The position numbers and the translations under genes were made by a program. Below the pieces are notes generated by a model. That model was not told the DNA's origin, searched no databases, and saw only the letters and a program-made list of their open reading frames with translations. A DNA stretch of 64,000 bases from Burkholderiales bacterium (GTDB lineage Bacteria > Pseudomonadota > Gammaproteobacteria > Burkholderiales > SG8-39): positions 808-64,807 of the forward strand of contig JACZJU010000102.1 of the NCBI GenBank assembly GCA_014860395.1, in the 5' to 3' direction. Positions 5,207-64,000 of this stretch are shown here, piece after piece (positions within the stretch are counted from its first letter, which is position 1; the number at the start of each line of letters is the position of its first letter).

Positions 5207-6388
5207 TTACGCGCGCTCGAACACCGCCGCGATGCCCTGACCGCCGCCGATGCACATGGTCACCAGCGCATAGCGGCCACCGCAGCGCTGCAGTTCGTGT
5301 AGCGCCTTGACTGTCAGCAGGCAGCCGGTGGCGCCGATGGGATGCCCCAGCGCCACGGCGCCGCCGTTGGGGTTGGTCTTCGTCGGGTCGAACTGCAGAT
5401 CCTTGGCCACGGCGCAGGCCTGGGCTGCGAACGCCTCGTTGGATTCGACCACGTCCATGTCGCTCACCTTGAGCTTGGCGCGCGCGAGCGCCGACTGCAC
5501 CGCGAGCACCGGGCCGATACCCATGTATTTGGGATCGACGCCAGCATGCCCGTAGGCGAGCAGCCGCGCCATCGGCTTCAGGCCTTGCTTCGCAGCGGCT
5601 GCGGCCTCCATCAGCACCACCGCCGCCGCGCCGTCGTTGATGCCGGAGGCGTTGCCGGCAGTGACCGAGCCGTCTTTCTTGAACACAGTCTTGAGCTTAG
5701 CCATGCCTTCCATGCTCGCATCGGCGCGCGGGTGCTCGTCGGTATCGAACACGGTCACGCCCTTGCGCGTCTTGAGTTCGATCGGCAGGATCTGCTCCTT
5801 GAAGTAGCCCTTTTGAATCGCGTTGATTGCGCGGCGGTGGCTTTCCACCGCGAATTCGTCCTGCTGTTGGCGTGTGATGCTCCATCTCGCGGCAACGTTC
5901 TCGGCGGTGATGCCCATGTGCACGGTGTCGAAGGGGTCGGTGAGCGCCCCCACCATCATGTCCACCGTGCCGCCGTCGCCCATGCGCTGGCCCCAGCGCA
6001 GTGTCGGCATCAGGTAGCCGCCGCGGCTCATCGATTCCGCTCCGCCCGCAAGCGCGATATCGGCATCGCCCAGCAGGATCGCCTGCGCGGCGCTGACGAT
6101 CGCCTGCATGCCGCTGCCGCACAGGCGGTTGAGCGTCATTGCCGGCGTGTGGTGGGCGAGGCCGGCATCGATCATGGCGACGCGCGACAGGTACATGTCC
6201 CTGGGTTCGGTATGGATGACGTGGCCGAACACCACGTGGCCGACGTCTTTCGGATCGATTTTGGCGCGCGCAACCGCTTCGCGCGCGACTTTGGCCGCGA
6301 GTTCGGTCGGCGCAATGTCTTTGAGCGCGCCGCCGTAATCACCGATTGCGGTGCGCACACCGCTTACTACCACGACTTGTCTGCTCAT
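5207..6388 (-). CDS. Acetyl-CoA C-acetyltransferase (thiolase II)
   Basis: MSRQVVVVSGVRTAIGDYGG N-terminus with AGGAG upstream of the ATG at 6388. Active-site regions NRLCGSGMQA, NEAFAAQ and GHPIGATGC ... CIGGGQGIA. Confidence 0.93.
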   Translation of the reverse strand: MSRQVVVVSGVRTAIGDYGGALKDIAPTELAAKVAREAVARAKIDPKDVGHVVFGHVIHTEPRDMYLSRVAMIDAGLAHHTPAMTLNRLCGSGMQAIVSAAQAILLGDADIALAGGAESMSRGGYLMPTLRWGQRMGDGGTVDMMVGALTDPFDTVHMGITAENVAARWSITRQQQDEFAVESHRRAINAIQKGYFKEQILPIELKTRKGVTVFDTDEHPRADASMEGMAKLKTVFKKDGSVTAGNASGINDGAAAVVLMEAAAAAKQGLKPMARLLAYGHAGVDPKYMGIGPVLAVQSALARAKLKVSDMDVVESNEAFAAQACAVAKDLQFDPTKTNPNGGAVALGHPIGATGCLLTVKALHELQRCGGRYALVTMCIGGGQGIAAVFERA

Positions 6389-6875
6389 CTGCGTTCTCCT
6401 TGATAGTGCGCGGCACGCCGCTGTGCCCGCGCAGGCAATGATGCCGTCGGACAATGTTACGCCCTTTGCGTCAGGTCAAAGCGTCTTGCAGAAATTCGGT
6501 GCGCGGTAAGACAAGACCAACCGAAAGCGGACGAGTTCAAGGGAGAGGGCGGACCTGGACGAAGTTGAGCGCGCGGAATTCCCCCGGGTCGGGCGCGCTG
6601 TCATCGTTCTGTAACACCGCTGGTGGCAGACTATTATCTGTGCAGACAGGAAAAACGCCGGCAGATCGCCGACTTGCGCGGCCGCAGCGAAGTTTTGCAC
6701 AGGCATATCCACAGATTTTGTGGGTAATTTCCCGTGAGTCGAGGTTTGCGCGATGTAGTGCGCGACACGGCTGCCGTGAAAATTTCACGCTGTCCGATTG
6801 CGGCGGGCGAATTGAGCTGTTCTGTCACGCAGCAGATCAAGACTGAAGCCAGACAATAAGTGATAGGGAGGGGCA

Positions 6876-7121
6876 ATGAAGGAGATGAGGGTCACCGGCG
6901 CTCAACAGAAGGTTCTGCAAATCCTTTCGCGCAAGGATATTTCCGCTATACGCAGAAATCCCAAGCTCGTCGCCGGCGCGAAGCACTTGCTGCTCGCATG
7001 CAAGAAGGCAATCAGGAAAGTGGAAGGGATTCCGCAGTACGCCTCGCGCAAGAAGCGTGAGACGGCGTACCGGCACATCGTCGCCATTTGCCGCAAGGCG
7101 ATAGACGAAGCCGAGCGTTAG
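6876..7121 (+). CDS. Hypothetical small basic protein (81 aa)
   Basis: GGGAGGGG Shine-Dalgarno 5 nt before the ATG. No recognisable family. Lies in a lower-GC gene-poor islet. Confidence 0.45.
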   Translation: MKEMRVTGAQQKVLQILSRKDISAIRRNPKLVAGAKHLLLACKKAIRKVEGIPQYASRKKRETAYRHIVAICRKAIDEAER

Positions 7122-7290
7122 CACGATTTCATTCTGAAAACACTGACGAGAACAAAGTACGGCGCAGAGTCAGAGACAATTCACATTTCCGTCAAAGCAC
7201 TGTCACTTTTCACCTCTATTGTGGGCATCTTGCGGCAGACCTGATCCGGACTGCCTTTGGATATCACAATCTGTAGAGGAGAATTTGATC

Positions 7291-7611
7291 ATGACCGACC
7301 AGAAGAGGGCTGTTCCGGCCGCCGACCGCGCGGATCGGAGCGCGCGGCCGACCGAGCTCAGACAAACCATCGCCGCCGTCATTGCCGTGACCCGGCGCGA
7401 GTGGATTTCACAAATGCCAGCGATGCCTGCACCCGAAGAAACCGCGCTCAAGCGCGCCCGGTTCGCGCACCCATTGGTCAGATATATTTTTGATTCCAAG
7501 CGCAACAGTTCCTGGCGCGCGCGGGTAGGGCGGCAGGGGCGCAAGCAAAGCGCGGAACGGTTTGCAGACCCGGATTGTGCGCCGGGGCGGCGCAGGCTGG
7601 AGCCTGTTTGA
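7291..7611 (+). CDS. Hypothetical protein (106 aa), weak AP2-like DNA-binding motif
   Basis: GAGGAG is 8 nt before the ATG at 7291 (inside ORF track 7219..7611). Segment VRYIFDSKRNSSWRARVGRQGRKQSAERF resembles the first half of a bacterial AP2 domain. The stop codon lies in REP-like copy E. Confidence 0.35.
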   Translation: MTDQKRAVPAADRADRSARPTELRQTIAAVIAVTRREWISQMPAMPAPEETALKRARFAHPLVRYIFDSKRNSSWRARVGRQGRKQSAERFADPDCAPGRRRLEPV

Positions 7612-7640
7612 AAATGAGGGCATATCCTTCCCTCATGGCC
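7601..7640 (+). repeat. REP-like hairpin element, copy E (degenerate)
   Basis: gcctgtttgaaaatgagggcatatccttccctcatgg aligns with copy A (gcctatttcaaaatgaggggatacatcccctcacg). Lies between convergent genes. Confidence 0.45.
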
Positions 7641-7642
7641 AA

Positions 7643-8635
7643 TTAAAGATACTGTTGGCCCAGGAACCAAGCGACCGCGGCGATGAAGGCGGAACAGGGT
7701 ATGGTGAGTATCCAGGCCCAGACGATATTGCCGGCCACGCCCCAGCGCACGGCATTGAATCGGTTCACCGATCCCACGCCGACGATGGCGCCGGTGATGG
7801 TGTGGGTGGTGGAAACCGGGACGCCCAGCCAGGTGGCGAGAAACAGGGTGATCGCACCGCCGGTTTCGGCACAGGCGCCGCCCACGGGTTTGAGCTTGGT
7901 GATTCTCTGGCCCATGGTTTTGACGATGCGCCAGCCGCCGAACATCGTGCCGAGCGCCATCGCCGACTGACAGGCCATCACTACCCAGAACGGCAGCGGA
8001 TCGCTTTGGCCGAGCTGGTCCCCCGCGATCAGCAGCATCCAGATGATGCCCATGGTTTTTTGCGCATCGTTGCCGCCGTGCCCGAGGCTGTAGAGCGAGG
8101 CCGAGACGAACTGCAGCCGGCGGAACCAGCGGTCGACGCGGCGCGGTGTAGTGCGCGAGAACATCCACGATACGGCAAGCATCAGTGTCCCGCCGAGTAC
8201 CATGCCCAGCAGCGGTGACAGCACGATCGCGGCGGTAGTTTTGAGAAAGCCGGCCGCCACCAGCGACTCCACCCCGCCCTTGGCCACCGCCGCGCCGGCG
8301 AGCCCGCCGATCAGGGCATGCGAGGAACTCGAGGGAATGCCGAAATACCAGGTGATGATGTTCCAGCTGATCGCCCCGATGAGCGCGCCGAATACAACAT
8401 AGTGATCGACGATGTCCGGATCGATGATGCCCTTGCCCACGGTGGCGGCGACCAGCAGGCCGAAGAACAGGAAGGCGATGAAATTGAAAAACGCCGCCCA
8501 CAGGACCGCCCACTGCGGCCGCATGACGCGCGTCGACACGATGGTGGCGATGGAATTGGCCGCGTCATGGAAGCCGTTGAGGAAATCGAAAGCGAGTGCC
8601 AGCGCGATCAGTAAGACGAGTTCATGGAGGCTCAT
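7643..8635 (-). CDS. pit: Inorganic phosphate transporter, PiT family
   Basis: N-terminal FDFLNGFHDAANSIAT and the second-half repeat GHGGNDAQKTMG are both PiT signature motifs. Multi-TM protein of 330 aa. Confidence 0.93.
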   Translation of the reverse strand: MSLHELVLLIALALAFDFLNGFHDAANSIATIVSTRVMRPQWAVLWAAFFNFIAFLFFGLLVAATVGKGIIDPDIVDHYVVFGALIGAISWNIITWYFGIPSSSSHALIGGLAGAAVAKGGVESLVAAGFLKTTAAIVLSPLLGMVLGGTLMLAVSWMFSRTTPRRVDRWFRRLQFVSASLYSLGHGGNDAQKTMGIIWMLLIAGDQLGQSDPLPFWVVMACQSAMALGTMFGGWRIVKTMGQRITKLKPVGGACAETGGAITLFLATWLGVPVSTTHTITGAIVGVGSVNRFNAVRWGVAGNIVWAWILTIPCSAFIAAVAWFLGQQYL

Positions 8636-8650
8636 TGGCGGAGGCCGCGC

Positions 8651-9277
8651 TCAGGCGTTTTCGATCACGATGCCCTGGATGATGTTGGCCACATCCTCGC
8701 AGCGGTCGGTCACTGTCTCCAGGTGCTCGTACACCGTGCGCAGCTTGATCAGCTCGCGCACGTCGGGCTCGTCGCGAAACAGGCGTCCGATGGCCGCGCG
8801 CATCACGTGGTCGGCGTCGGACTCGAGCCGGTCTATTTCCCGGCATATCGCCATGATCGCATCGGCGTTGTCCATGCTGGAGAGCAAAGCCACGGCGCTT
8901 TTTACCTTGTCGCAGCATTCCACGCAGATGTCCGCGAGTTTTTTAGCGTCCGGCGACAGGACGCGCACGTCGTACAGGAACATGAGCTGCGCCGAGTCCT
9001 CGATCAGGTCGAGGATATTGTCCATTTCGGAGATCAGCTGGTGAATATCGTCGCGGTCGATCGGCGTGATGAAGGTCTTGTGCAGCAGTTCGATCGTGTT
9101 GCGGGTAATCTTATCGCCGCGCTTTTCTATCGTCTCGACGTTGCGTGCGCGCCGCTCGAGATCGTCGCCGCTGGCCATCAGCGCCGCCAATTCGCGGCTG
9201 CCCTCCAGTATCAGCGCCGCGTGTTCATTGAACAGATCGAAGAATTTGCCCTCGCGCGGCATGAAGCGACTGAACAT
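8651..9277 (-). CDS. DUF47 / PhoU-like Pit accessory protein (YkaA family)
   Basis: MFSRFMPREGKFFDLFNEHA start and helical DUF47-type sequence (IEKRGDKITRNTIELLHKTFITPIDRDDIHQL). Lies immediately upstream of pit in the same orientation. Confidence 0.88.
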   Translation of the reverse strand: MFSRFMPREGKFFDLFNEHAALILEGSRELAALMASGDDLERRARNVETIEKRGDKITRNTIELLHKTFITPIDRDDIHQLISEMDNILDLIEDSAQLMFLYDVRVLSPDAKKLADICVECCDKVKSAVALLSSMDNADAIMAICREIDRLESDADHVMRAAIGRLFRDEPDVRELIKLRTVYEHLETVTDRCEDVANIIQGIVIENA

Positions 9278-9449
9278 CGCGACCTCGACTGGAAGATGGA
9301 ATTATTGGTTATTAACGAGCTGGGCGGCTTCTGCAATCGCCGCCTTTTCGAGGCAGGATTGTAGCAATAGACGCAGGCGCTGTCCCGAAAAAAACTGCCG
9401 TGCCGCATTTTTTAAAGAAACCAGGCAGCGGTGGCCGGTGCGCGGGAAC

Positions 9450-11537
9450 TTACTCGCGCGCGAGTTCGCCCAGCAGCATCAATTGCGCCGAACGCGGCAG
9501 GGTGCCGCGCGGATTCTTGCGCTTGTATATTCCGTCGGCGTCCATGTCCCAGGCCTGCCGGTTGTCCTTGAGGTAGGGTTTGAGCCCCTCCTTGATGACG
9601 CGTTGTTTGAGTTTTTTGTCCAGCACCGGAAAGCAAAGCTCGACGCGGCGGAAGAAGTTGCGATCCATCCAGTCGGCGCTGGAGAGATAGACATTTTCCT
9701 TGCCGCCATTATGGAAATAGAAAATGCGCGTATGTTCGAGAAAACGGCCGACGATGGAGCGCACGCGGATTCGCTCTGACAGCCCCGGCACCCCGGGGCG
9801 CAGCGCGCACACCCCGCGCACCACGAGGTCGACGCGCACCCCGGCCTGCGAGGCCTCGTACAAGGCTTCGATTACTGTAGGTTCGAGCAGGGCATTCATT
9901 TTCGCGATGACGCGCGCCGGCTTGCCTGCCTTGGCGAGCCGGGTTTCGTTTTTTATCGCGGCGATGACGTTCGCGTGCAGCGTGAACGGCGCCTGCCACA
10001 CGTGATGCAGTTTCCCTGCCTTGCCCAGGCCGGTCAACTGCTTGAACACCTCGTTGACGTCGGCGCAGACGTCCTTGTTGCAGGTGAACAGGCCGAAGTC
10101 GGTGTAAAGGAGCGCGGTGCGCGGATGGTAATTGCCGGTGCCCAGGTGCACGTAGCGGCGCAGCTTCCCCTCCTCGCGCCGCACCACCAGCGCCATTTTT
10201 GCATGGGTCTTGTGCGCAACCACGCCATAGACCACGTGTGCGCCGACTTCCTCCAGACGCTCGGCCCAATTGATGTTGGCGACCTCCTCGAAGCGCGCCA
10301 TCAGTTCCACCACCACGGTCACTTCTTTGCCGCTGGCGGCCGCCTCGATCAGGGCTTCCATAATGGCGGAGTCGGTGCCGATGCGGTAGACCGTCTGCTT
10401 GATCGCGACCACCTGCGGGTCCTTGGCGGCTTCCTGGACGAAATTGACCACCGGCGTAAACGACTGGAACGGGTGGTGCAGCAGCACGTCGCCCTTGCGC
10501 ACTGCGGCGAAAATGTCGGCCCGCTTCGCCAAGGCGGCGGGGCGTCCCGGACGAAACGCCGGGAACGCGAGGTCGGGCCGGTTGACGAGTTCGGGGATCT
10601 GCATCAGACGCACCAGGTTGACCGGGCCGTTGACCTGGTACAGATCCTCCGCACTGAGACCAGTCTGCTGCAGCAGGAATTCGGCCATGCCCTGGGTGCA
10701 GTTGTCGGCGACCTCCAGGCGCACCGCGGCGCCCAGGTTGCGCAAAGGCAGCTCGCCCTGCAGCGCCGTGCGCAGGTTTTTTACCTCTTCTTCGTCCACG
10801 AACAGGTCGCTGTTGCGGGTGACGCGAAACTGGTAGCAGCCGCGCACGCTCATGCCCGCGAACAACTCGGACGCGTGTTCGTGCAGCACGGAGGAGAGGA
10901 AAACGAAGCTCTGTTCCTTGCCTGGTTGCAGCTCGCCGGGCAGCCGGATCATCCGCGGCAGGATGCGCGGCGCCTGCACGATTGCGGCGCGCGAGGCGCG
11001 GCCGAAGGCGTCGCGACCCTCCAGTTCCACGGCGAAGTTCAGGCTCTTGTTGAACACGCGCGGGAAGGGGTGCGCCGGATCCAGGCCGATCGGCGTGAGC
11101 ACCGGCATCATCTCGTTGAAGAAATAGTCGCGCACCCAGTTGCGCTGCGCTTCGTTCAGATCATTGCGGCGCAGGAAGCGCACGCCGGCCTTTTCCAGCT
11201 CCGGCAGGATATTCTCGTTGAGCAGCCGGTACTGGCGATCCACCAGTTCGTGTGCGATGCGGCTGACCGCGGCGAATACGTCGCGCGGGTTCATGCCGTC
11301 GGGGCCGGCGCTGGACAGATTAACGCTGATCGTCTCCTTCAGTTCGGCGACGCGGATCTCGAAGAATTCGTCCAGGTTGCTGCTGACGATGCAAAGAAAG
11401 CGCAGGCGCTCCAGCAGCGGCGTGTCCGCATCCTCGGCCTGGGCCAGCACGCGGCGGTTGAACTCGAGGATGCCGATTTCCCGGTTGAGAAACAGCACTT
11501 GCGGCGGGAGCATTGAGTCTTTCTTCTTAAACAACAT
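9450..11537 (-). CDS. ppk: Polyphosphate kinase 1
   Basis: ~695 aa. N-terminus FLNREIGILEFNRRVLAQAED, autophosphorylation-region HLGTGNYH, and two PLD-like C-terminal domains. Start chosen at the second ATG (11537); 11564 is the alternative. Confidence 0.95.
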   Translation of the reverse strand: MLFKKKDSMLPPQVLFLNREIGILEFNRRVLAQAEDADTPLLERLRFLCIVSSNLDEFFEIRVAELKETISVNLSSAGPDGMNPRDVFAAVSRIAHELVDRQYRLLNENILPELEKAGVRFLRRNDLNEAQRNWVRDYFFNEMMPVLTPIGLDPAHPFPRVFNKSLNFAVELEGRDAFGRASRAAIVQAPRILPRMIRLPGELQPGKEQSFVFLSSVLHEHASELFAGMSVRGCYQFRVTRNSDLFVDEEEVKNLRTALQGELPLRNLGAAVRLEVADNCTQGMAEFLLQQTGLSAEDLYQVNGPVNLVRLMQIPELVNRPDLAFPAFRPGRPAALAKRADIFAAVRKGDVLLHHPFQSFTPVVNFVQEAAKDPQVVAIKQTVYRIGTDSAIMEALIEAAASGKEVTVVVELMARFEEVANINWAERLEEVGAHVVYGVVAHKTHAKMALVVRREEGKLRRYVHLGTGNYHPRTALLYTDFGLFTCNKDVCADVNEVFKQLTGLGKAGKLHHVWQAPFTLHANVIAAIKNETRLAKAGKPARVIAKMNALLEPTVIEALYEASQAGVRVDLVVRGVCALRPGVPGLSERIRVRSIVGRFLEHTRIFYFHNGGKENVYLSSADWMDRNFFRRVELCFPVLDKKLKQRVIKEGLKPYLKDNRQAWDMDADGIYKRKNPRGTLPRSAQLMLLGELARE

Positions 11538-11658
11538 AGCGTAAGCTCTGCATGTTGCAGCCATATTACCCCAATCGCGGGCGCAGCAATATTCCCGTCA
11601 TATTCGCTTGCTAGCATCCTCCGATCCAATGGACTATCGGGTCGGGCAGCCATCCCTC

Positions 11659-12363
11659 ATGCAGCACAAGCATACCTCCAGCCAATTCGATGCCCAGTTG
11701 GAGCAGATTCGCTCCAAAGTCCTGCATATGGGCGGCGCGGTCGAGGACCAGCTGTCTTTGGCGGTGCGCTCGCTGCAGGCGGGCGAAATGTATCTGATCG
11801 AGCAGGTGCTGGATGTAGAACTCCAGGTCAATGCGCTGGAAATGGAGATTGATGAGCTATGCACCAACATCATCGCGCGCCGCACACCGACCGCGATCGA
11901 TCTGCGCATGGTGACCATGGTCGTCAAAACGATCACCGACCTTGAGCGGGTGGGCGATGAGGCGAAGAAGATTGTGCTGATGGCGCGCGAGTTCTTCCGC
12001 AGCGGGCGCGGCCATATGCCGCGCTATTCCGAGATCCAGCGCATGTCCGGGATCGTCATCGATATGCTGCGTGACGCGCTGGACGGTTTTGCCCGCCTCG
12101 ATGCGGAAACGGCGCCATCGATCGCGCGCCGCGATCTGGAAGTGGACGACTCTTTTCGCGCCATCCTGCGCGAGCTGCTCACCTATATGATCGAAGACCC
12201 GCGCACCATATCGGCGACCCTCGACACGGTGTTCATCGCCAAGGCGCTGGAGCGCGTGGGCGATCACGCCAAGAACATTTCCGAATACGTGGTCTACATG
12301 ATCATGGGCAAGGATGTGCGCCATCTGAGCGCGGATGAAATAGAGCTGGCGGTGAAATCGTAG
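11659..12363 (+). CDS. phoU: Phosphate signalling complex protein PhoU
   Basis: HTSSQFDAQLEQIRSKVLHMGG N-terminus. Duplicated PhoU repeats with DLERVGDEAKKI and ALERVGDHAKNI. ATG at 11659 inside ORF track 11608..12363. Confidence 0.93.
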   Translation: MQHKHTSSQFDAQLEQIRSKVLHMGGAVEDQLSLAVRSLQAGEMYLIEQVLDVELQVNALEMEIDELCTNIIARRTPTAIDLRMVTMVVKTITDLERVGDEAKKIVLMAREFFRSGRGHMPRYSEIQRMSGIVIDMLRDALDGFARLDAETAPSIARRDLEVDDSFRAILRELLTYMIEDPRTISATLDTVFIAKALERVGDHAKNISEYVVYMIMGKDVRHLSADEIELAVKS

Positions 12364-12454
12364 TCCGCGGCGATGGCCGCGCCACGCAACTTGGCGGCGC
12401 AGGTCGAGTAATTCTGTTGCGTGCCCATGTTCGCGGTGCTAAGGTATTCGCGCC

Positions 12455-13954
12455 ATGCAATACGAGACTCTTGCCGCGGTCGACCTCGGCTCCAACAGCT
12501 TTCATCTGCAAATCGGCCGTATCGTCGACGATCAGATCTATCTGCTCGACGGCATGCGCGAGCCGGTGCGCCTGGGCGCCGGGCTGACGCGCGACAAGCG
12601 CATCGACCGCGCCACCCAGGTGCGCGCGCTGGATGCGCTGCGGCGTTTTTCCGACCGGCTGCGCGGCTTTCCCGCGGAGGCGGTGCGCGTCGTCGGCACC
12701 AACGCGCTGCGCGTGGCCAAGAATTCGCGCCAATTCCTGGCCGAGGCCAAGGAGGCGCTGGGCTTTCCGATAGAAATCATCGCCGGACGCGAGGAAGCGC
12801 GGCTGATCTACGTCGGCGTGGCGCACAGTCTGACGCTAAGCCGCGAAAAGCGCCTGGTGATCGACATAGGCGGCGGCTCGACCGAATGTATCATCGGCAT
12901 CGGCGTCGAGCCGGTGCTCATGGACAGCCTGTACATGGGCTGCGTCAGCTTCAGCCTGAGGTACTTCGCAGACGGCAGGATCGAGAAGTCCGCGTTCAAG
13001 CAAGCCGAACTTGCGGCGAGAAACGAACTGCAGACCATCGTCAAGCAGTACACCCGGCACGGTTGGGGCGAGGCCGTAGGCGCGTCCGGGACCGCGCGCT
13101 CGATAGCCAGCATTCTCGAAGCCAACGGCTGGAGCGAGCACGGCATATCGGCGCCGGGGCTGGACAAGTTGAGAAGCGCTTTCCTCAAGGCGGGGGAGGT
13201 CGAGCGCCTGGACTTGCCCGGCTTGCGCGAGGACCGCGCTTCCATACTACCTGGCGGCCTGGCCATCATGTGCGCCGCGTTCGCCGAGCTGGGCATCGAA
13301 CACATGAGCGTTTCGGACGCCGCCCTGCGCCAGGGGGTGCTCTACGATCTGCTAGGCCGCGTGCAGAAGCACGACATGCGCGAAGTCACGGTGCAGCACT
13401 TCATGCGCCGCTATCACGTCGATACGGCGCAGGCGCGGCGCGTGGCGGAGCTGGCGGCGAGCTTGCATCGCAATCTGCGCGGGAGCGAGAGCGACCCGAA
13501 TGCGGAACAGACGCTCGCCTGGGGCGCCGCCCTGCACGAGATCGGCATTTCCATCGCCCACAACGGCTATCACAAGCATTCGGCCTATATCATCGCCAAT
13601 GCCGACATGCCCGGGTTCTCGCGCATGGAGCAGTCGCAGCTGGCGCGGCTCGCGCTCGCCCATCGCGGCAAGCTGGCCAAGCTGCAGGACCTGAGCCCGG
13701 TTCCCGACGATTGGGCGCTGGTGTTCTGCCTGCGCCTGGCGAGTCTTTTCTGCCGCAGTCGCACCGATCTCGATCTGCCGCGGCTTGCCTGCGAACTGAC
13801 AGAGAGCGGCTTTCGCCTGCTGCTGCCGCCGGACCTGCTGGAGGACCGCCCCTTGATCGCGGCCGCGCTGGCCGATGAAGCGGACCAATGGAAATCGATC
13901 GGGCTGCGGCTGGAAACGAAGCCGCTGCGCGATACTGGAGCCAAGGCGGCCTGA
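12455..13954 (+). CDS. ppx: Exopolyphosphatase (Ppx/GppA family)
   Basis: LAAVDLGSNSFHLQI, DIGGGSTE and RLIYVGVAH (ASKHA fold), followed by an HD-like C-terminal domain. 499 aa. Confidence 0.93.
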   Translation: MQYETLAAVDLGSNSFHLQIGRIVDDQIYLLDGMREPVRLGAGLTRDKRIDRATQVRALDALRRFSDRLRGFPAEAVRVVGTNALRVAKNSRQFLAEAKEALGFPIEIIAGREEARLIYVGVAHSLTLSREKRLVIDIGGGSTECIIGIGVEPVLMDSLYMGCVSFSLRYFADGRIEKSAFKQAELAARNELQTIVKQYTRHGWGEAVGASGTARSIASILEANGWSEHGISAPGLDKLRSAFLKAGEVERLDLPGLREDRASILPGGLAIMCAAFAELGIEHMSVSDAALRQGVLYDLLGRVQKHDMREVTVQHFMRRYHVDTAQARRVAELAASLHRNLRGSESDPNAEQTLAWGAALHEIGISIAHNGYHKHSAYIIANADMPGFSRMEQSQLARLALAHRGKLAKLQDLSPVPDDWALVFCLRLASLFCRSRTDLDLPRLACELTESGFRLLLPPDLLEDRPLIAAALADEADQWKSIGLRLETKPLRDTGAKAA

Positions 13955-14164
13955 CGACCGGTTAAGCGCAAGCCCTAAAATAGGGTGCGCCGATGCCGGG
14001 ATCAGTCTTTGCGCTTATTCCTAATCATCGTTGGCAGCGCCAGGCCGCGGCTGCATCGAACTTTTCATCCACACTAAGGTCTACGCAATTGTTTCAAACC
14101 GCGCCGTTTCGGGATATATCTCGGCGCGACTGAGGACGGCCCATACTCCGAGTGGATATTCGTT

Positions 14165-14569
14165 ATGGAATGGAAGACCGAGTACGCGACCGGCATACGC
14201 AACATTGATGCTCATCACCGAAAGTTGATGGAGTTCATCGCTTTGTTTGAAAATGCTGTGCAACACAATGCGCCCGGGAACGAGGTCCGCGCCTTGTTCC
14301 AGCGCACGAAGACTTTCCTGCAATTTCACTTTGACGTCGAAGAAGCTTTGATGCGCCTGGTCCCGTACCCGGGACTCGACGCGCATAGAACGGAACATCA
14401 GCAGGTGTTATCGCAAATCGAGCAGCTAGAGCAGCGCGCGGCTGGCGACATTGCGCCGAACGACCTGGCGGCGTCGATGCAGGCCTGCCTGGCCGATCAC
14501 ATTGCGGCCGGCGACAGATTGTTCGCGCAATACGCCCACCGCCTCTACGGTCAGGCAAGCCTGCCTTAG
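14165..14569 (+). CDS. Bacteriohemerythrin (hemerythrin-like metal-binding protein)
   Basis: WKTEYATGIRNIDAHHRKLMEFI start, then HFDVEE and H..H...H / DHI ligand pattern. 134 aa. Confidence 0.88.
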   Translation: MEWKTEYATGIRNIDAHHRKLMEFIALFENAVQHNAPGNEVRALFQRTKTFLQFHFDVEEALMRLVPYPGLDAHRTEHQQVLSQIEQLEQRAAGDIAPNDLAASMQACLADHIAAGDRLFAQYAHRLYGQASLP

Positions 14570-58105: not shown

Positions 58106-58122
58106 TCGGAGGGAGGCAAGAT

Positions 58123-58656
58123 ATGAATTGCCTGATGACGGCCTGGCATGAACACGAAGCCGAATTGCGTGGCTGGCTGCGGCACCGGATGGGGAACGCT
58201 GTCGACGCCGAGGACTTGCTGCAGGATGTGTTTATCAAGGCCATGCGCCAGGGCGAGCGCTTCTGCGCGATCGTCGATGCGCGCGCCTGGCTGTTCGAGG
58301 TGGCGCGCAACGCGCTTGCCGACCGTCTTCGACTCAAGCGCACCACAGTGGAACTGCCCGAAGACCTGAGCGCCGAGACCGAGGAGGCGGCCGCGGTCGA
58401 CAGCCTCGCGGCCTGCCTTCCGCGCGTGCTCTCCGAGCTGAGTCCGGAGGACAGGGAGGCGATCACCCTGTGCGATCTGCAGGGTCTGCGGCAGGAAGAA
58501 TACGCGCGCCGCAAGGGTCTGAGCCTGCCCGGGGCGAAGTCGCGCGTGCAGCGCGCGCGCAAGCGGCTGCGTGAACGGCTTACGCAAGCCTGCCAAGTCC
58601 GCCTGGATGCGGACGGGCAGGTGAGCGATTTCGTGCCGCGCCCGCCGATCGCCTGA
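58123..58656 (+). CDS. ECF-type sigma-70 family RNA polymerase sigma factor (SigZ-like, no adjacent anti-sigma)
   Basis: GGAGGGAGG before the ATG at 58123. Region 2 DAEDLLQDVFIKAM...AWLFEVARNALADRLR. Region 4 LSPEDREAITLCDLQGLRQEEYARRKGLSLPGAKSRVQRARKRLRE. Confidence 0.88.
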   Translation: MNCLMTAWHEHEAELRGWLRHRMGNAVDAEDLLQDVFIKAMRQGERFCAIVDARAWLFEVARNALADRLRLKRTTVELPEDLSAETEEAAAVDSLAACLPRVLSELSPEDREAITLCDLQGLRQEEYARRKGLSLPGAKSRVQRARKRLRERLTQACQVRLDADGQVSDFVPRPPIA

Positions 58657-58664
58657 GCGCAATA

Positions 58665-59072
58665 TTAGAGATTCGCCGAAAGCGTCGCGATAATCGGGCA
58701 TGAGCGCGGGCGCTTACCATCGGCGCATTGCGCAATCAGCCCCCGGAGCGATCGGCGCATGCGCATCAGGTCGGTGATGCGCCTTTCGATCAGACCCAGC
58801 TTGCGCTCGGCAAGCAAGCGCGTCTCCCGGCAGCTTTGACCGTCCTCCAGCAGCAACAGCTCCTTGATTTCCTCCAGCGTGAAGCCGAGCTGTTGCGCGC
58901 GCTTGATGAAGCGCACGCGCGTCGCCGCCGAGGCCGAGTAGCGCCGCTGTCCGCCCAAGGGCCTGGACGGCTCATCCAGCAGCCCGCGCCGCTGGTAGTA
59001 ACGTATGGTTTCGACGTTCACGTCCGCCGCCTTGGCGACGCCACCGATGCTGGGTTGCGCGTTTAATTTCAT
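58665..59072 (-). CDS. merR: MerR-family Hg(II)-type metalloregulator
   Basis: 135 aa from the ATG at 59072. HTH IGGVAKAADVNVETIRYYQRRGLL. Cys81/Cys116/Cys125 have the same spacing as the Hg-ligand Cys82/117/126 of Tn501 MerR. LEDGQSC and SCPII match MerR LEDGTHC and SCPLI. Confidence 0.9.
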   Translation of the reverse strand: MKLNAQPSIGGVAKAADVNVETIRYYQRRGLLDEPSRPLGGQRRYSASAATRVRFIKRAQQLGFTLEEIKELLLLEDGQSCRETRLLAERKLGLIERRITDLMRMRRSLRGLIAQCADGKRPRSCPIIATLSANL

Positions 59073-59076
59073 CCCC

Positions 59077-59108
59077 TTGACTCCGTACCATGGTACGGAG
59101 TCTATGCT
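59077..59108 (+). promoter_or_regulatory. mer-type operator/promoter (MerR dyad inside an over-long -35/-10 spacer)
   Basis: TTGACT (59077-82); perfect dyad CTCCGTAC-catg-GTACGGAG (59081-59100); TATGCT (59103-08), giving a 19-20 bp spacer. Nearly identical to the Tn501/Tn21 merOP core TCCGTAC-N4-GTACGGA. Confidence 0.88.
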
Positions 59109-59214
59109 ACTCCTGTCGCCGGAAAACCAGTGGAGGCACTGTGAATTCATCGAAGGCAAAGGCCGCGTTGATCGCCGGGATGCCCGTCGGCATCGACGCG
59201 CCATAAGATCCAAA

Positions 59215-59433
59215 ATGAGCGCCGTCGTCCTCGAATCCGTGCTGACCTGCCCGCATTGCGGCTACGCCAGGCTGGAAACCATGCCTACGGACGCCTGCCA
59301 GTTCTTCTACGAATGTGGCGGTTGTGGCGCGCTGCTGCGTCCCAGGCCCGGCGACTGCTGTGTTTTCTGTTCGTTCGGCTCGGTCAAATGCCCGCCGATT
59401 CAGCAGCATGGCGCTTGCTGCGGCCCGGGCTAG
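59215..59433 (+). CDS. GDCCVxC-domain cysteine-rich miniprotein (72 aa)
   Basis: MSAVVLESVLTCPHCGYARLETMPTDACQFFYECGGCGALLRPRPGDCCVFCSFGSVKCPPIQQHGACCGPG has 13 Cys, including CPHC, CGGC and GDCCVFC. First gene downstream of the mer promoter. Confidence 0.8.
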   Translation: MSAVVLESVLTCPHCGYARLETMPTDACQFFYECGGCGALLRPRPGDCCVFCSFGSVKCPPIQQHGACCGPG

Positions 59434-59523
59434 CCCAGGCTGCATCCTTTCGCGCCGTCGTTCGTCTTCACTGGTAAGGGCGCAATCTGTGCCCATGCTA
59501 GGGATGACGAAGGAAATACGCCC

Positions 59524-60570
59524 ATGGACGCGGTTTTTGCCCCACTGCGGCGCTGGCCCAGCCAGCAACCGCTGCTGTTCCTGATTCTGGCCATCTCGGC
59601 TTGGTTCGGCCTTTACCTGCTCCTGGCGCCGGCCGCCGAGGCATTGGTGGCCGCGTTGCCGGTGGAACGCGACAGCCACCTCGGCGGCGCCCTTCAATTC
59701 TTCTTCTACGACACGCCCAAGGTGCTGCTGCTCTTGACCGGCATCGTGTTCGTGATGGGGATGGTCAACTCCTACTTCACGCCGGAACGCACGCGCGCCT
59801 TGCTTGCCGGGCGCACCGAGGGCGCGGCCAATGTTATGGCGGCCAGCCTGGGCATCGTCACGCCATTTTGCTCGTGCTCGGCAGTGCCACTTTTCATCGG
59901 TTTCGTGCAGGCGGGCGTGCCGCTGGGCGTGACCTTTTCCTTCCTGATTTCGGCGCCCATGGTCAATGAAGTCGCGCTCACGCTGCTGTTCGCGATGTTC
60001 GGCTGGAATGTCGCGCTTCTCTACCTCGGCCTGGGCCTGACGGTGGCCATCGTCGCCGGCTGGGTGATCGGCCGACTGAAAATGGAAGCCCATTTGGAGG
60101 ACTGGGTGCGCGATATGCCGCATACCGCCGCAGCCGTCGGCGAGGACAGGCTCAGCCTCGGCGAGCGTCTCGACGCCGGCTTCACTTCGGTGCGCGAGAT
60201 CGTGGGCAAGGTCTGGCCCTACATCCTCGGCGGCATCGCCATAGGCGCCGGCATACACGGCTATGTGCCGCAGGATTTCATGGCGTCGTTCATGGGCAAG
60301 GATGCGTGGTGGGCGGTGCCGCTGGCGGTGGTGATCGGCGTGCCCATGTACACCAACGCTGCAGGCGTGATTCCGATCGTGCAGGCGCTGCTCGCCAAGG
60401 GCGCGGCGCTGGGCACGGTGCTCGCGTTCATGATGAGCGTGATCGCGCTGTCGCTGCCCGAGATGGTAATCCTGCGCAAGGTGCTGAAAATGCGCTTAAT
60501 TGCCACGTTTGTCGGCGTGGTTGCCACGGGCATCCTGCTCGTCGGTTACGTATTCAATGCTGTTCTCTAA
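59524..60570 (+). CDS. UPF0718/ArsP-like permease with vicinal-Cys motif
   Basis: 348 aa, ~8-10 TM. FFFYDTPKVLLLL and GIVTPFCSCSAVPLFIGF motifs. Internal two-fold repeat (second half PMYTNAAGVIPIVQALL). Confidence 0.8.
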   Translation: MDAVFAPLRRWPSQQPLLFLILAISAWFGLYLLLAPAAEALVAALPVERDSHLGGALQFFFYDTPKVLLLLTGIVFVMGMVNSYFTPERTRALLAGRTEGAANVMAASLGIVTPFCSCSAVPLFIGFVQAGVPLGVTFSFLISAPMVNEVALTLLFAMFGWNVALLYLGLGLTVAIVAGWVIGRLKMEAHLEDWVRDMPHTAAAVGEDRLSLGERLDAGFTSVREIVGKVWPYILGGIAIGAGIHGYVPQDFMASFMGKDAWWAVPLAVVIGVPMYTNAAGVIPIVQALLAKGAALGTVLAFMMSVIALSLPEMVILRKVLKMRLIATFVGVVATGILLVGYVFNAVL

Positions 60571-60584
60571 TGCGGGGAACGAGA

Positions 60585-60645
60585 CGAGGGGACATATCCC
60601 CTCGTGCTCCCCTAAACCAGGCGCCTAACGAAAATCGTCAGGCGC
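60585..60645 (+). repeat. REP-like hairpin element, copy B
   Basis: Hairpin CGAGGGGA-cata-TCCCCTCG, tail TGCTCCCCTAAACCAGG, and second hairpin GCGCCTAACG-aaaat-CGTCAGGCGC. Lies between the permease and thioredoxin-fold genes. Confidence 0.6.
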
Positions 60646-60669
60646 TCTAAATCAACCAAGGAGTTTTCC

Positions 60670-60909
60670 ATGAAAGAAGTCAAGGTGCTTGGAAGCGGTT
60701 GCGCCAACTGCCGTACCACTGCGGCGCTGATCGAGGAAGTGGCACAGGCCAAGGGCGTTGCCGTCACTATGCAAAAAGTCGAGGAACCACGCGAGATCGT
60801 CGGCTACGGCGTGATGTCCACGCCGGGCGTAGTGATAGACGGCAAGGTCGTGCATGCAGGCGGCGTGCCCAGCCGCGACAAAATCGCGGGATGGTTTTCC
60901 GCCGTGTAA
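60670..60909 (+). CDS. Thioredoxin-fold protein (redox-active disulfide protein 2 / MTH895-type)
   Basis: 79 aa, MKEVKVLGSGCANCRTT (CxxC) ... STPGVVIDGKVVHAGGVPS. AAGGAG before the ATG. Confidence 0.85.
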   Translation: MKEVKVLGSGCANCRTTAALIEEVAQAKGVAVTMQKVEEPREIVGYGVMSTPGVVIDGKVVHAGGVPSRDKIAGWFSAV

Positions 60910-61019
60910 ACTGTCGACTCCCGTCGAAATAGGGCGGTTCTGCCGGCCCCCCTTCTTCGACAACCTGCTAACATTTGCCGGATACGCTCCTACCCTCAAC
61001 GTAAACGGCTGATTTGCCC

Positions 61020-62420
61020 ATGGAGTCCAAGCACCGCGCCCGCCTGAAAGCCATCATCGATGCGCTGGAAAGCGGATTGGTGGAACGCCGCCAGAGCGTG
61101 CGGCTATGCCTGCTCTGTGCCCTGGCCGGCGAGCACACGCTGCTCATCGGTCCCCCTGGCACGGCAAAAAGCGAACTGGCGCGGCGTCTGCATACGGTTT
61201 TTCGCGACGCTCGCTACTTCGAGCGCCTGCTGACCCGCTTCTCGGTGCCGGAGGAGTTGTTTGGCCCGCTGTCGATCCAGGCGCTGGAGCAGGACCGCTA
61301 CGAGCGGCATACCGACGGATTCCTGCCCGATGCCTCGATTGCGTTCATAGACGAGGTGTTCAAGGCCAACAGCGCCATACTCAATGCGTTGCTTACGCTG
61401 CTCAACGAGCGCGAATTCGACAACGGCGCCGGCCGCCAGCGCTGCCCCCTGATCAGCGCCATCGGCGCTACCAACGAGGTGCCGGAAGACGAGGTCGCCG
61501 ACGCCTTCTTCGACCGCTTCCTGGTGCGCCTGCCGGTCGCCGCAGTCAGCGCGGCGGGCTTCGGTGCGCTGCTCGAGGTCGGCCTAGACTGCGGTTGGAC
61601 GCCGCTGCCGGCGGGCCTGGCTTTGGACAAGAACGATCGCACCGTGCTTGCGGACGCGGCGACCGCGGTTGAGGTTCCAGCCGCGCTGGTCGCGGTGCTG
61701 GCCGAACTGCGCCAGCACTTCGCTGCCGAGAGAATCCATGTATCCGACCGTCGCTGGGTGAAGATCGTCTGGCTGCTGCGCGTCGCCGCGGCGAGCGAAG
61801 GCAGATCGGCTGTCGCGCTGTGGGACCTGCTTTTGCTTCCCTGGGTCACCGGGCCCGATGCGGCGCGCCAGGCGGCTGTGGCCGACTGGCTCTCTGCCCG
61901 GCTCGGGGTGCGCGAAACATATTCGCCCGAACGCCTGACGCGGGTAGTCGAGGCCTTTGAGGCGCAGCTCGATGCCGAACTGAATGCGAACGATCTGGAT
62001 TACGACGAATTCGGTCGCTTGCGCTTCTCCGCGGCCGAGTTGGCGGAACAAGTTGGCGACGCCAAGCAAGGCGCAGCCGCCCCGCGCATGACCTACAAAC
62101 GCAACCGCCGCTACGGCAGGACGCATATCGACGCCCGTGTCGGCCAGATCGACGCATTGCTCGCGCGCATTGCGGACTACGCTAGCGAAATCTCCACGCA
62201 GCGGGAAAGCCTCGCCGCCTACCGGGCGCAGAGCTTGTGGCTGGATGAGAGTCTGACCGGGCGCGCCGCCGCAGTTCTGGCTGCCACGGGTGCCGCAATT
62301 GACGGTTTGGCCGAGCGCGCGCGATCGGCGCGGGAAGGTTTCCTCGATCTGCCGCGCCTGCAGCAGGACGACGGCATGGTGCCGGAACCCGTTGTTCACG
62401 AGGCGCTCGCCGAAACTTGA
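61020..62420 (+). CDS. ravA: MoxR-class AAA+ ATPase, RavA-like
   Basis: Aligns by eye with E. coli RavA. LESGLVERRQSVRLCLLCALAGEHTLLIGPPGTAKSELARRL (Walker A), FIDEVFKANSAILNALLTLLNEREF (Walker B), HVSDRRWVKIVWLLRVAAASEGRSAV. Confidence 0.88.
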   Translation: MESKHRARLKAIIDALESGLVERRQSVRLCLLCALAGEHTLLIGPPGTAKSELARRLHTVFRDARYFERLLTRFSVPEELFGPLSIQALEQDRYERHTDGFLPDASIAFIDEVFKANSAILNALLTLLNEREFDNGAGRQRCPLISAIGATNEVPEDEVADAFFDRFLVRLPVAAVSAAGFGALLEVGLDCGWTPLPAGLALDKNDRTVLADAATAVEVPAALVAVLAELRQHFAAERIHVSDRRWVKIVWLLRVAAASEGRSAVALWDLLLLPWVTGPDAARQAAVADWLSARLGVRETYSPERLTRVVEAFEAQLDAELNANDLDYDEFGRLRFSAAELAEQVGDAKQGAAAPRMTYKRNRRYGRTHIDARVGQIDALLARIADYASEISTQRESLAAYRAQSLWLDESLTGRAAAVLAATGAAIDGLAERARSAREGFLDLPRLQQDDGMVPEPVVHEALAET

Positions 62421-64000
62421 ACGCTCCGGTTCCACATTCACTGCTGTTCGAAGCCGAAGAGGCGCGCCTCGCGGCGCTCGACGGCTTGGCGCGCAAGCTC
62501 TGGCTGGGCGGGCTGACGAACTCCCAGGGTCGCCTGGAACCGCGGCTAGAGTCGCTCCTTGCTTTGCGCACGGGATTGCACAGCGGGCGGCTCGCGCCCG
62601 CCGAGACATGGCTGTGGCCGCCGCCTCCGATTGCCGACGCCCTGAACGATGCAATCACCGAGTTTGGTCTCGCCGGCTATTGCGCTGGCGAGGCGGAACT
62701 AACGGACACCGTCGTAATGAGCGTTTTGTTTCACCTGGATTTCATCGTCGACTACCGCGACCGCGGGGCGAGTGAGGCCGAGGCTGTGCGCATGGCGATA
62801 GAGGCTTTCGCAGCGGAGTGGCAGGAACGCTGCGGCCAATTCGACGAGCTGGTCGAGGTTTTCGGCTTGCTGCCCGATGACACAAAAAGCACGCGTTGGG
62901 ATCAGATTCGCGGCGTGCTGCGCTCCGCGGGATGGCAGGAGGTGCTGCGCATACGCCGGCTGCTGGCGCGCCTGCCGGAATTGGCGCGGATCATACGCGG
63001 GCTGGGGCGTGCCCGAGCGTCCGAGGAGCGGGACGCGATGAACCAGACGAGCGTGGAGCTCATCGACGAGGCCATCGCTCAGCGTCCCGAGCGCCGTACC
63101 GTGCGCGTGCCCGACATGCCAGGCGAAACCCGGGGCGTGCATCGCTCCGACCGGATCGCGCGCATGCTGCCAACCGAGGCCATGCTTCTCGGTCATCCGC
63201 TGCTGCGGCTCGTATGGCACGCGCGCCGGGCCGAACGCACGCTCCTCAGCTACGAGGACGACGACCGCATGCAGGAGCTGCGTCTGCACCGATCACGCGT
63301 CCTGCGTCCGCATATCGAACAGCAGCCGGGCACGCGGCCGGAAATGGGGCCGATACTGGTGTGCGTCGACACCTCGGGCTCCATGCAGGGTGGCGCCGAA
63401 GCGGTGGCAAAAGCGGTCGTGCTCGAGGCCATGCGCACCGCCCATGCGCAACGGCGTTCCTGCCACCTGTTTGCGTTCGGCGGGCCCGACGAACTGGTCG
63501 AAATGGAGCTGGCCGTGGACAGCGGCGGGATCGAGCGTATTGCGCGTTTTCTCGGGCAGGCTTTTCACGGCGGCACCGACATCTGCGCGCCACTCGAAAG
63601 GGCGATGGCCAAACTCGAACACCAGCGCTGGCAGCTGGCCGATCTGCTCATCGCCTCCGACGGCGAATTCGGCGCCACGCCAGCGACCGTCACCCGGCTG
63701 GACGCGATTAAGCGCAAGCTCGGCCTGCGCGTGCAGGGCGTGCTGGTCGGAGACCGGGAGAGCGTAGGCTTTTTGGAAATTGCCGACAACATCTATCCAA
63801 TCCGCGACTGGCGCCGCTACGGCGGGTCCGATGCAGAGTCGCCGATCCATTCCCATCGTCTTACCGCCATGTATTTCCCGGGGGCGCTGCGCGGCGCGCG
63901 GGAGCCCGCAGTCTCCGGCGAGATCGCCTCGGCAACCATGTGCAGCGGTCCGGATGGCAGCGTGCGAGAGCCGCGAACCCTTCCTGGTTCCGGCCACAAC
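62417..64000 (+). CDS. viaA: VWA-domain protein, ViaA-like; 3' end beyond window; NOT in supplied ORF track
   Basis: My own translation of the frame containing 62417 shows no stop to the window end. RGVHRSDRIARMLPTEAMLLGHP, LLSYEDDD, GPILVCVDTSGSMQGG (MIDAS DxSxS at 63368-63385) and FHGGTDICAPL resemble E. coli ViaA. The proposed TTG start overlaps the ravA stop (CTTGA), and the exact start is uncertain. Confidence 0.8.
   Translation, partial: MNAPVPHSLLFEAEEARLAALDGLARKLWLGGLTNSQGRLEPRLESLLALRTGLHSGRLAPAETWLWPPPPIADALNDAITEFGLAGYCAGEAELTDTVVMSVLFHLDFIVDYRDRGASEAEAVRMAIEAFAAEWQERCGQFDELVEVFGLLPDDTKSTRWDQIRGVLRSAGWQEVLRIRRLLARLPELARIIRGLGRARASEERDAMNQTSVELIDEAIAQRPERRTVRVPDMPGETRGVHRSDRIARMLPTEAMLLGHPLLRLVWHARRAERTLLSYEDDDRMQELRLHRSRVLRPHIEQQPGTRPEMGPILVCVDTSGSMQGGAEAVAKAVVLEAMRTAHAQRRSCHLFAFGGPDELVEMELAVDSGGIERIARFLGQAFHGGTDICAPLERAMAKLEHQRWQLADLLIASDGEFGATPATVTRLDAIKRKLGLRVQGVLVGDRESVGFLEIADNIYPIRDWRRYGGSDAESPIHSHRLTAMYFPGALRGAREPAVSGEIASATMCSGPDGSVREPRTLPGSGHN

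Follow-up and report, generated by a model that had tools for sequence, protein, structure and literature searches.

Near the end of a 64,000-nucleotide (nt) stretch of DNA from a Burkholderiales bacterium (assembly GCA_014860395.1, contig JACZJU010000102.1, positions 808 to 64,807 of the forward strand; G000:C171:808-64807 in our numbering of genomes, contigs and loci, and referred to here as the window) lie two genes that encode a MoxR-class AAA+ ATPase resembling RavA of Escherichia coli and a von Willebrand factor A (VWA) protein resembling its partner ViaA. Together with the gene that follows just beyond the window, they form a three-gene translationally coupled operon for an ATPase, a VWA adaptor and a DUF4213/DUF364 protein. 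The pair co-occurs in genomes with genes for tungsten-dependent aldehyde oxidoreductase (AOR) and its relatives in the AFOR family, and it is repeatedly found adjacent to them. On balance, we lean towards the view that this coupled RavA-like/ViaA-like operon, which lacks the LARA domain of RavA and commonly includes the DUF364 gene, serves the AFOR tungsten enzymes, above all the three-subunit AorABC.

The ravA-like gene (61020..62420, forward strand) encodes a 466-aa ATPase of a short type without LARA domain. Its open reading frame (ORF) is open from 61014, and the ATG at 61020 agrees with the N-termini of the orthologous ATPases. The viaA-like gene (62417..>64000, forward strand) has a TTG start and encodes a VWA/MIDAS protein. 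Since the contig extends another 182 nt beyond the window end, the complete gene could be recovered; it specifies 533 aa and closes with a stop codon at window positions 64016-64018. An earlier sequence-only reading of the window had predicted both genes, and both ORFs are confirmed; the second had been hidden from the ORF track for the sole reason that it has its stop beyond the window end. The same reading had placed the viaA start on the ravA stop and taken this as a sign of translational coupling, a proposal that has held up well. The two genes share 4 nt (TTGA, 62417..62420, forward strand), with the TTG beginning at 62417 and the TGA occupying 62418-62420.

For comparison, 80 related loci encoding full-length orthologues of the ATPase (65-87% identity) were fetched, mostly from Rhodocyclaceae-type bacteria (Sulfuritalea, Dechloromonas, Azonexus, Methyloversatilis, Aromatoleum and Azoarcus). 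Genes in these loci were called with a GC3 filter against the antisense ORFs of high-GC DNA, and key genes were checked by tblastn. Wherever the contig permits a judgement (78 loci), the ATPase and VWA genes are direct neighbours, and a start codon occupies the identical junction position (NTGA) in 61 of 78 (41 GTG, 14 ATG and 6 TTG). Because a start codon has been kept at this site, the TTG start and the predicted translational coupling of the two genes are well supported. In E. coli K-12 (L093) ravA and viaA overlap by 7 nt (5598-5604), and a start/stop overlap is therefore common to the wider family. The third gene continues the pattern: its ATG at window position 64015 overlaps the viaA stop (ATGA), it encodes 282 aa, and it leaves contig C171 to resume at the start of contig C91, the sole continuation of C171, through an exact 141-nt overlap. 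A DUF364 gene of similar length (~280 aa) directly follows viaA on the same strand in 69 of the 80 related loci; the viaA stop and the start of the gene after it overlap in 54 of 58.

The neighbourhood of the operon in its relatives provides the first line of evidence for a connection with tungsten enzymes. A recurrent set of five neighbouring genes encodes a small Fe-S protein, an AFOR_N/AFOR_C protein, a pyridine-nucleotide-disulphide flavoprotein, a ThiS/MoaD-like protein and a 98-aa ORF; this set corresponds to the aorABCDE operon of Aromatoleum aromaticum (PMC6365974). Two arrangements are found. In nine loci (L010, L013, L015, L018, L029, L030, L034, L045 and L062), aorA-aorB-aorC-aorD(-aorE) immediately precedes ravA in the same orientation, at a distance of ~75-100 nt, and in five (L023, L027, L038, L040 and L057) the aor operon is located downstream in convergent orientation, 0.5-6.4 kb away. 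In addition, moeA, whose product inserts the metal into molybdopterin, occurs within 10 kb of the pair in eight loci. In the genome behind L045 (G389) the order is moeA, aorA-B-C-D, ravA, viaA and a second aorC-like gene. This second flavoprotein gene, directly after viaA (L086, G389:C192, 10740-11957), encodes a product 46% identical to AorC. The genome from which the window comes contains five AFOR-family (PF01314) genes, with an aorABCD cluster on contig C218 (7716-11715, minus strand), three paralogues on C206 and one on C336.

The second line of evidence comes from co-occurrence, which was assessed in 301 genomes drawn evenly from the order. Full-length relatives of the ATPase are present in 14 of them, and all 14 encode an AorB orthologue (71-87% identity), compared with 41 of the 301 genomes overall (Fisher p=8e-14). 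The association persists at the level of genera, where AorB is found in 7/7 genera with the ATPase and in 20/143 in total (p=4e-7). Genomes carrying other RavA-like types, which match the ATPase only up to about residues 275-325, contain AorB in none of eight cases. Within two genera, ATPase and AorB are present or absent together: both occur in G420 and neither in G507, and likewise both in G549 and neither in G588. Among the genomes behind loci with all three genes (the triad), 42 of 50 have AorB and the remaining eight have other AFOR paralogues. Overall, an AFOR-family gene is present in 64 of 64 genomes with this ATPase type, against an order background of 44/301 (14.6%).

It is important to point out that the link between ATPase and AOR is correlative, and a number of observations weigh against a functional connection. 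The two could both mark the same anaerobic, aromatic-degrading lineages, a possibility on which only the two within-genus contrasts bear. An AorB orthologue is missing from 8 of the 50 triad genomes, and 27 of the 41 AorB-positive genomes of the order sample do not have this type of ATPase; the pair would therefore be an accessory, and AOR has no general need for it. In the window genome itself the aor cluster and the triad are on separate contigs (C218 versus C171/C91), and following C91 towards C218 by 141-mer overlaps yielded no unique continuation in the assembly. Unrelated genes surround the pair in two Aromatoleum loci (L074 and L077) and in distant representatives (G149, G420, G462 and L098-L100); distant pairs adjoin housekeeping genes such as sucAB-lpd, thiolase, recR and msrA, in a neighbourhood view that is restricted by short metagenomic contigs. 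As to the third gene, just 5 of the 14 ATPase-bearing genomes in the order sample contain a DUF364 relative, and DUF364 genes occur with mixed neighbours in genomes that have no such pair.

These points lend some weight to the strongest alternative, namely that the pair acts on some other client, one characteristic of Rhodocyclales-type bacteria that live anaerobically, degrade aromatic compounds or denitrify, and that its tie to AFOR genes reflects a shared lifestyle and inherited synteny. Such an explanation would sit comfortably with the many AOR-positive genomes that have no pair and the triad genomes that have no AorB, with the limitation of adjacency to some lineages, and with distant pairs that stand beside unrelated genes, in one case near a xanthine-dehydrogenase-type Mo enzyme. 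It is less easily reconciled with co-occurrence in 14/14 and 64/64 genomes over a background of ~14%, with the existence of two distinct adjacency arrangements, one contiguous on the same strand and one convergent, or with the joint presence and absence in two genera and the 0/8 result for other RavA-like types. We regard it as rather unlikely, if clearly the best of the competing explanations. The Mo enzyme just mentioned is an observation in its own right: in L100 (14539-18091) a distant short-type pair (P0132, 47% identity) lies ~4 kb from a xanthine-dehydrogenase/aldehyde-oxidase-type enzyme with Fer2, MoCoBD and FAD_binding_5 domains, and is thus near another pterin enzyme.

The ATPase is best classified, from its sequence, as a RavA-like member of the RavA/ViaA branch of MoxR-VWA systems, not as a RavA equivalog. 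The sequence-only reading had noted intact Walker motifs and an alignment with RavA through the HVSDRRW region, and these features were all located on the forward strand: Walker A (GPPGTAKS, residues 44-51, 61149..61172) and Walker B (AFIDEVF, residues 108-114, 61341..61361), both invariant among the 34 orthologues compared, and HVSDRRW in the AAA+ lid (residues 240-246, 61737..61757), which aligns with YVSDRRW of E. coli RavA. A GATNE motif is also present at residues 149-153. The two proteins are 46% identical over residues 8-273, with no alignment beyond (BLASTP). Pfam matches are bpMoxR (PF20030, 4e-61, 206 bits against a gathering score of 27), AAA_5 (89 against 22) and AAA_lid_8 (50 against 22.8). 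The top NCBIfam match is RavA (NF010054), at 253.7 bits against an equivalog cut-off of 681 and covering only model positions 9-281 of 498, and E. coli RavA is the only protein of solved structure with a sequence match (residues 10-282). An AlphaFold model built from 34 orthologues (mean pLDDT 79, pTM 0.80) comprises the AAA+ core, the lid and helices at residues 281-321 and 367-442, with a low-confidence segment (residues 322-366) between them. Its best Foldseek matches are again structures of RavA (4upb, 3nbx and 6q7l; TM 0.62-0.64, 460-497 aligned columns), so that NCBIfam, solved structures and fold agree on RavA as the nearest MoxR subfamily, albeit below the equivalog cut-off. In a phylogenetic tree the ATPase belongs to a subclade (support 99/91) that is clearly separate from E. 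coli RavA; the class of ATPases that match it over their full length is not strictly monophyletic.

The most conspicuous difference from RavA concerns the region that in E. coli contacts the lysine decarboxylase LdcI. At 466 aa, the ATPase is ~30 residues shorter than E. coli RavA (498 aa), and the suspicion that the LdcI-binding insertion is missing proved justified. Neither LARA (PF20265) nor ATPase_RavA_C (PF12592) is matched in the Pfam scan (E<=0.01), whereas E. coli RavA, the positive control under the same scan, matches LARA_dom at 1e-39 (residues 335-436) and ATPase_RavA_C at 1.8e-23. None of ten near relatives, short or long, matches LARA or RavA_C either, and judging from these sequences the absence of LARA is not rare in itself. 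In its place, dividing the predicted C-terminal helical bundle in two, is a conserved insert of ~45 residues (residues 322-366; 61983..62117, forward strand) with the consensus NDLDYDE.GRLRFS...GDAKGG...RMTY.R.RRYG..HI.AR, many positions of which are invariant across the 34 orthologues. The insert has low pLDDT at residues 329-358 and is flanked by helices at 303-321 and 367-404 of the model; longer relatives (~520 aa) match the C-terminus of the ATPase in two blocks that flank an insert of ~100 residues. Because the RavA fold matches over nearly the full length and an insert is found at the same place, the architecture of the protein (core, lid, predicted helical bundle and insert) appears to be that of RavA. 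The position corresponds to the LdcI-binding site of RavA, and the ~45-residue insert could plausibly be where a partner or client docks. The window genome contains one large Orn/Lys/Arg decarboxylase (OKR_DC_1), encoded on a different contig (C242); the ATPase lacks the domain expected to contact such an enzyme.

The partner protein was recognized earlier as ViaA-like and as the carrier of a MIDAS motif, and both descriptions apply. The MIDAS is complete, with DTSGSM at residues 318-323 (63368..63385, forward strand) and its partner motifs GGTD at residues 385-388 (63569-63580) and ASDGE at residues 413-417 (63653-63667); residues D318, T319, S320, S322, T387, D388 and D415 are invariant in 36 sequences. 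The protein matches the Pfam models VWA_2 and VWA_CoxE, and its best NCBIfam match is ViaA (NF008230), at 171.2 bits against a cut-off of 500, with residues 129-460 aligned to model positions 157-471. Identity to E. coli ViaA is 33% in an alignment confined to residues 161-460 (BLASTP). By these measures it is a member of the RavA/ViaA branch and not a ViaA equivalog. Its structural model shows a confident N-terminal helical domain (residues 1-194), long beta-hairpins, a VWA domain (residues 313-470) and a disordered tail. Solved relatives were found only for the VWA domain; they are generic VWA/MIDAS domains, among them that of NorD from the NorQD complex.

Compared with E. coli RavA-ViaA (PDB 3NBX and 6Q7L), the pair thus has the same gene order and a start/stop overlap, an AAA+ core and lid that are 46% identical, a predicted full-length ATPase fold that appears to include the C-terminal helical bundle (TM ~0.63), and a VWA protein related to ViaA through its middle region and its MIDAS-bearing VWA domain (33% identity). 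It differs in that the ATPase lacks LARA and any sequence-detectable RavA_C, that the N-terminal 130-160 residues of the VWA protein do not align with ViaA, and that both proteins fall far below the NCBIfam equivalog cut-offs. The pair also has a third gene, DUF364, and is genomically associated with the tungsten AOR, not with LdcI, Nuo or Frd.

Among MoxR-VWA pairs, CoxD-CoxE(-CoxF) of the Mo-Cu carbon monoxide dehydrogenase, NorQ-NorD and CbbQ-CbbO each mature or reactivate a dedicated metalloenzyme. The operon resembles them in combining a MoxR ATPase with a VWA/MIDAS adaptor beside, or co-occurring with, one metalloenzyme, and the VWA_CoxE model matches the VWA protein of the window. These systems belong to different MoxR subfamilies, and the client proposed here would be a tungsten bis-pterin AFOR enzyme. 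Gene structure, homology, domain loss, coupling, synteny and co-occurrence are direct observations, from which a chaperone action, the identity of the client and the maturation step assisted are inferred. By analogy with these pairs and with RavA-ViaA, a hexameric ATPase would probably spend ATP on remodelling a client that is held by the VWA/MIDAS partner; the client would most probably be a tungsten-pterin oxidoreductase of the AFOR family, chiefly the three-subunit AorABC, and the pair would aid AOR in acquiring its cofactor or in assembly. Candidate steps are insertion of the tungsten cofactor into AorB, assembly of the Fe-S or flavin subunits, and formation or disassembly of filaments. 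A more specific proposal, put forward tentatively and with somewhat less than an even chance of being right, is that the LARA-less pair, joined by the DUF364 protein in genomes that have it there, constitutes the dedicated machine, missing until now, that assembles AorABC and related AFOR enzymes or inserts their cofactor.

As the third member of the operon, the DUF364 protein is facultative. A homologue search with this protein returned only close relatives. Orthologues from L002 and L056 match Pfam DUF364 (1.7e-31) and DUF4213 (3.8e-06), both above the gathering scores, and the protein of the window genome is 84% identical to the L002 copy. In G389, G420 and G575 the DUF364 gene is located away from the pair. 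Stand-alone DUF364 genes have no coherent neighbour theme; they are found next to genes for a fused 2-oxoacid:ferredoxin oxidoreductase, an OYE flavoenzyme, an FGE-sulfatase and a TPM protein. In L083 (G420, 9789-14346) and L089 (G507, 6333-10797), DUF364 directly follows the gene for the fused 2-oxoacid:ferredoxin oxidoreductase (1,204-1,210 aa; TPP_enzyme_C, POR and DUF6537) and is not with ravA-viaA. In the window genome, nitroreductase-family and MlaC-family genes are located downstream of DUF364 (L082, G000:C91, 750-2243); they are not conserved beside the triad elsewhere. The third gene product shares the DUF4213 + DUF364 two-domain architecture with other members of the family (PDB 3L5O, Dhaf4260; Orf5), for which no functional tie to MoxR/VWA pairs is known. 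The only characterised member of the DUF364 family is the methyl-SAM cyclase Orf5, which makes methyl-azetidine carboxylate and is encoded in a Streptomyces cluster (PMC12930334). DUF364 genes elsewhere adjoin molybdate/tungstate transporters, and a role has been suggested from this context (PMC2954201; 10.1101/2024.03.05.583561). Two further apparent literature matches to DUF364 turned out to concern DUF3644/HEPN.

The location of the operon in the window had invited a different interpretation, in which the pair acts on respiratory complexes as in E. coli, here NADH dehydrogenase I (Nuo), and its position after nuoA-N reflects this function. Two publications describe interactions of E. coli RavA-ViaA with Nuo and fumarate reductase (PMC3893208, PMC10585395). 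The distance of 4.5 kb reported earlier is accurate, 4,524 nt separating the nuoN stop from the ravA ATG, and nuo is also upstream in the closest relative, L004. However, pyrF and a Nudix gene lie between nuo and the pair, and these two genes precede the pair elsewhere only in L004. The neighbourhood comparison revealed no enrichment near nuo, with nuoM/N in the upstream flank of 1 of the 80 related loci, namely L004, ~64 of the 80 having more than 5 kb of upstream flank; the upstream context of the pair varies among lineages. Furthermore, Nuo is near-universal in these bacteria and the pair is rare (14/301), and therefore Nuo cannot explain the presence of the pair. A respiratory client of this kind, one of those the sequence-only reading had suggested, now appears improbable.

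The same applies with greater force to the idea that the pair works with the adjacent cassette of ECF-sigma, MerR, GDCCVxC, ArsP-type permease and thioredoxin-like genes (window ~58106-61019, between the Nudix gene and ravA) and acts on a client connected with thiols or heavy metals. The cassette shares its strand with ravA and stops 110 nt short of it, and a simple scan of 60500-61200 upstream of ravA found no sigma-70-like promoter; but across the 80 related loci, none of the cassette genes is a neighbour of the pair. Because in L004 ravA follows the Nudix gene directly, ~146 nt apart and without the cassette, the cassette is a local insertion, and a link to the thiol/metal cluster, also entertained earlier, is very improbable. 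A terminator-like hairpin with a T-run is present at 60873-60889, within the 3' end of the thioredoxin-like gene. Finally, a MoxR-vWA biological-conflict (defence) system, as in the name of the top Pfam match of the ATPase, bpMoxR, can be set aside as highly implausible: E. coli RavA matches bpMoxR equally well, PADLOC gives no meaningful match for any of the three proteins, a beta-propeller or effector gene is absent and the third gene is DUF364 instead, and the pair keeps a stable position, its conservation within a family (65-87% identity) looking vertical.

The genes aorD and aorE of the tungsten enzyme operon have been named only 'putative maturation factors' (PMC6365974), and the published aor operon ends at aorE, the ATPase, VWA and DUF364 genes not being mentioned (PMC6365974, PMC9295118). 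AorD and AorE share with the pair a proposed role in tungsten-cofactor maturation of the same enzyme and lie directly upstream of it in nine loci; unlike the pair, they are small unrelated proteins of the ThiS/MoaD fold (PMC6365974, PMC9295118). In the literature searched, no paper combined MoxR or von Willebrand with tungsten or AFOR, and no MoxR-VWA-type factor was described for a tungsten bis-pterin AFOR enzyme. Such genes go unmentioned both in a 2026 classification of WORs that covered ~4,000 WOR gene neighbourhoods and in a 2025 review of tungsten enzymes; a tie between a RavA-ViaA-like pair and tungsten oxidoreductases is not described in the literature searched. Recombinant AOR has been made in A. 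evansii because this host makes and inserts the tungsten cofactor (PMC9295118). Strain A. evansii KB740 carries the triad (L074). If the proposed role is correct, it would help to explain why the hosts that have yielded active AOR up to now belong to Aromatoleum, in which the pair is present.

Should the link turn out to be mere co-inheritance, the locus would be an ordinary, unannotated MoxR-VWA operon. To our knowledge, work on RavA-ViaA has concerned almost solely the systems of E. coli and Vibrio, and there is still debate about the true client; a distinct branch of RavA-ViaA whose genomic behaviour points at one enzyme class may offer a cleaner system for understanding how RavA-type motors function. 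Tungsten AORs reduce carboxylic acids and use H2, and they are of biotechnological interest. We know of no established mechanism for the insertion of the tungsten bis-pterin cofactor or for the assembly of AorABC filaments, and a dedicated ATPase-adaptor pair would provide a testable candidate for these processes and a possible requirement for the heterologous production of AOR.

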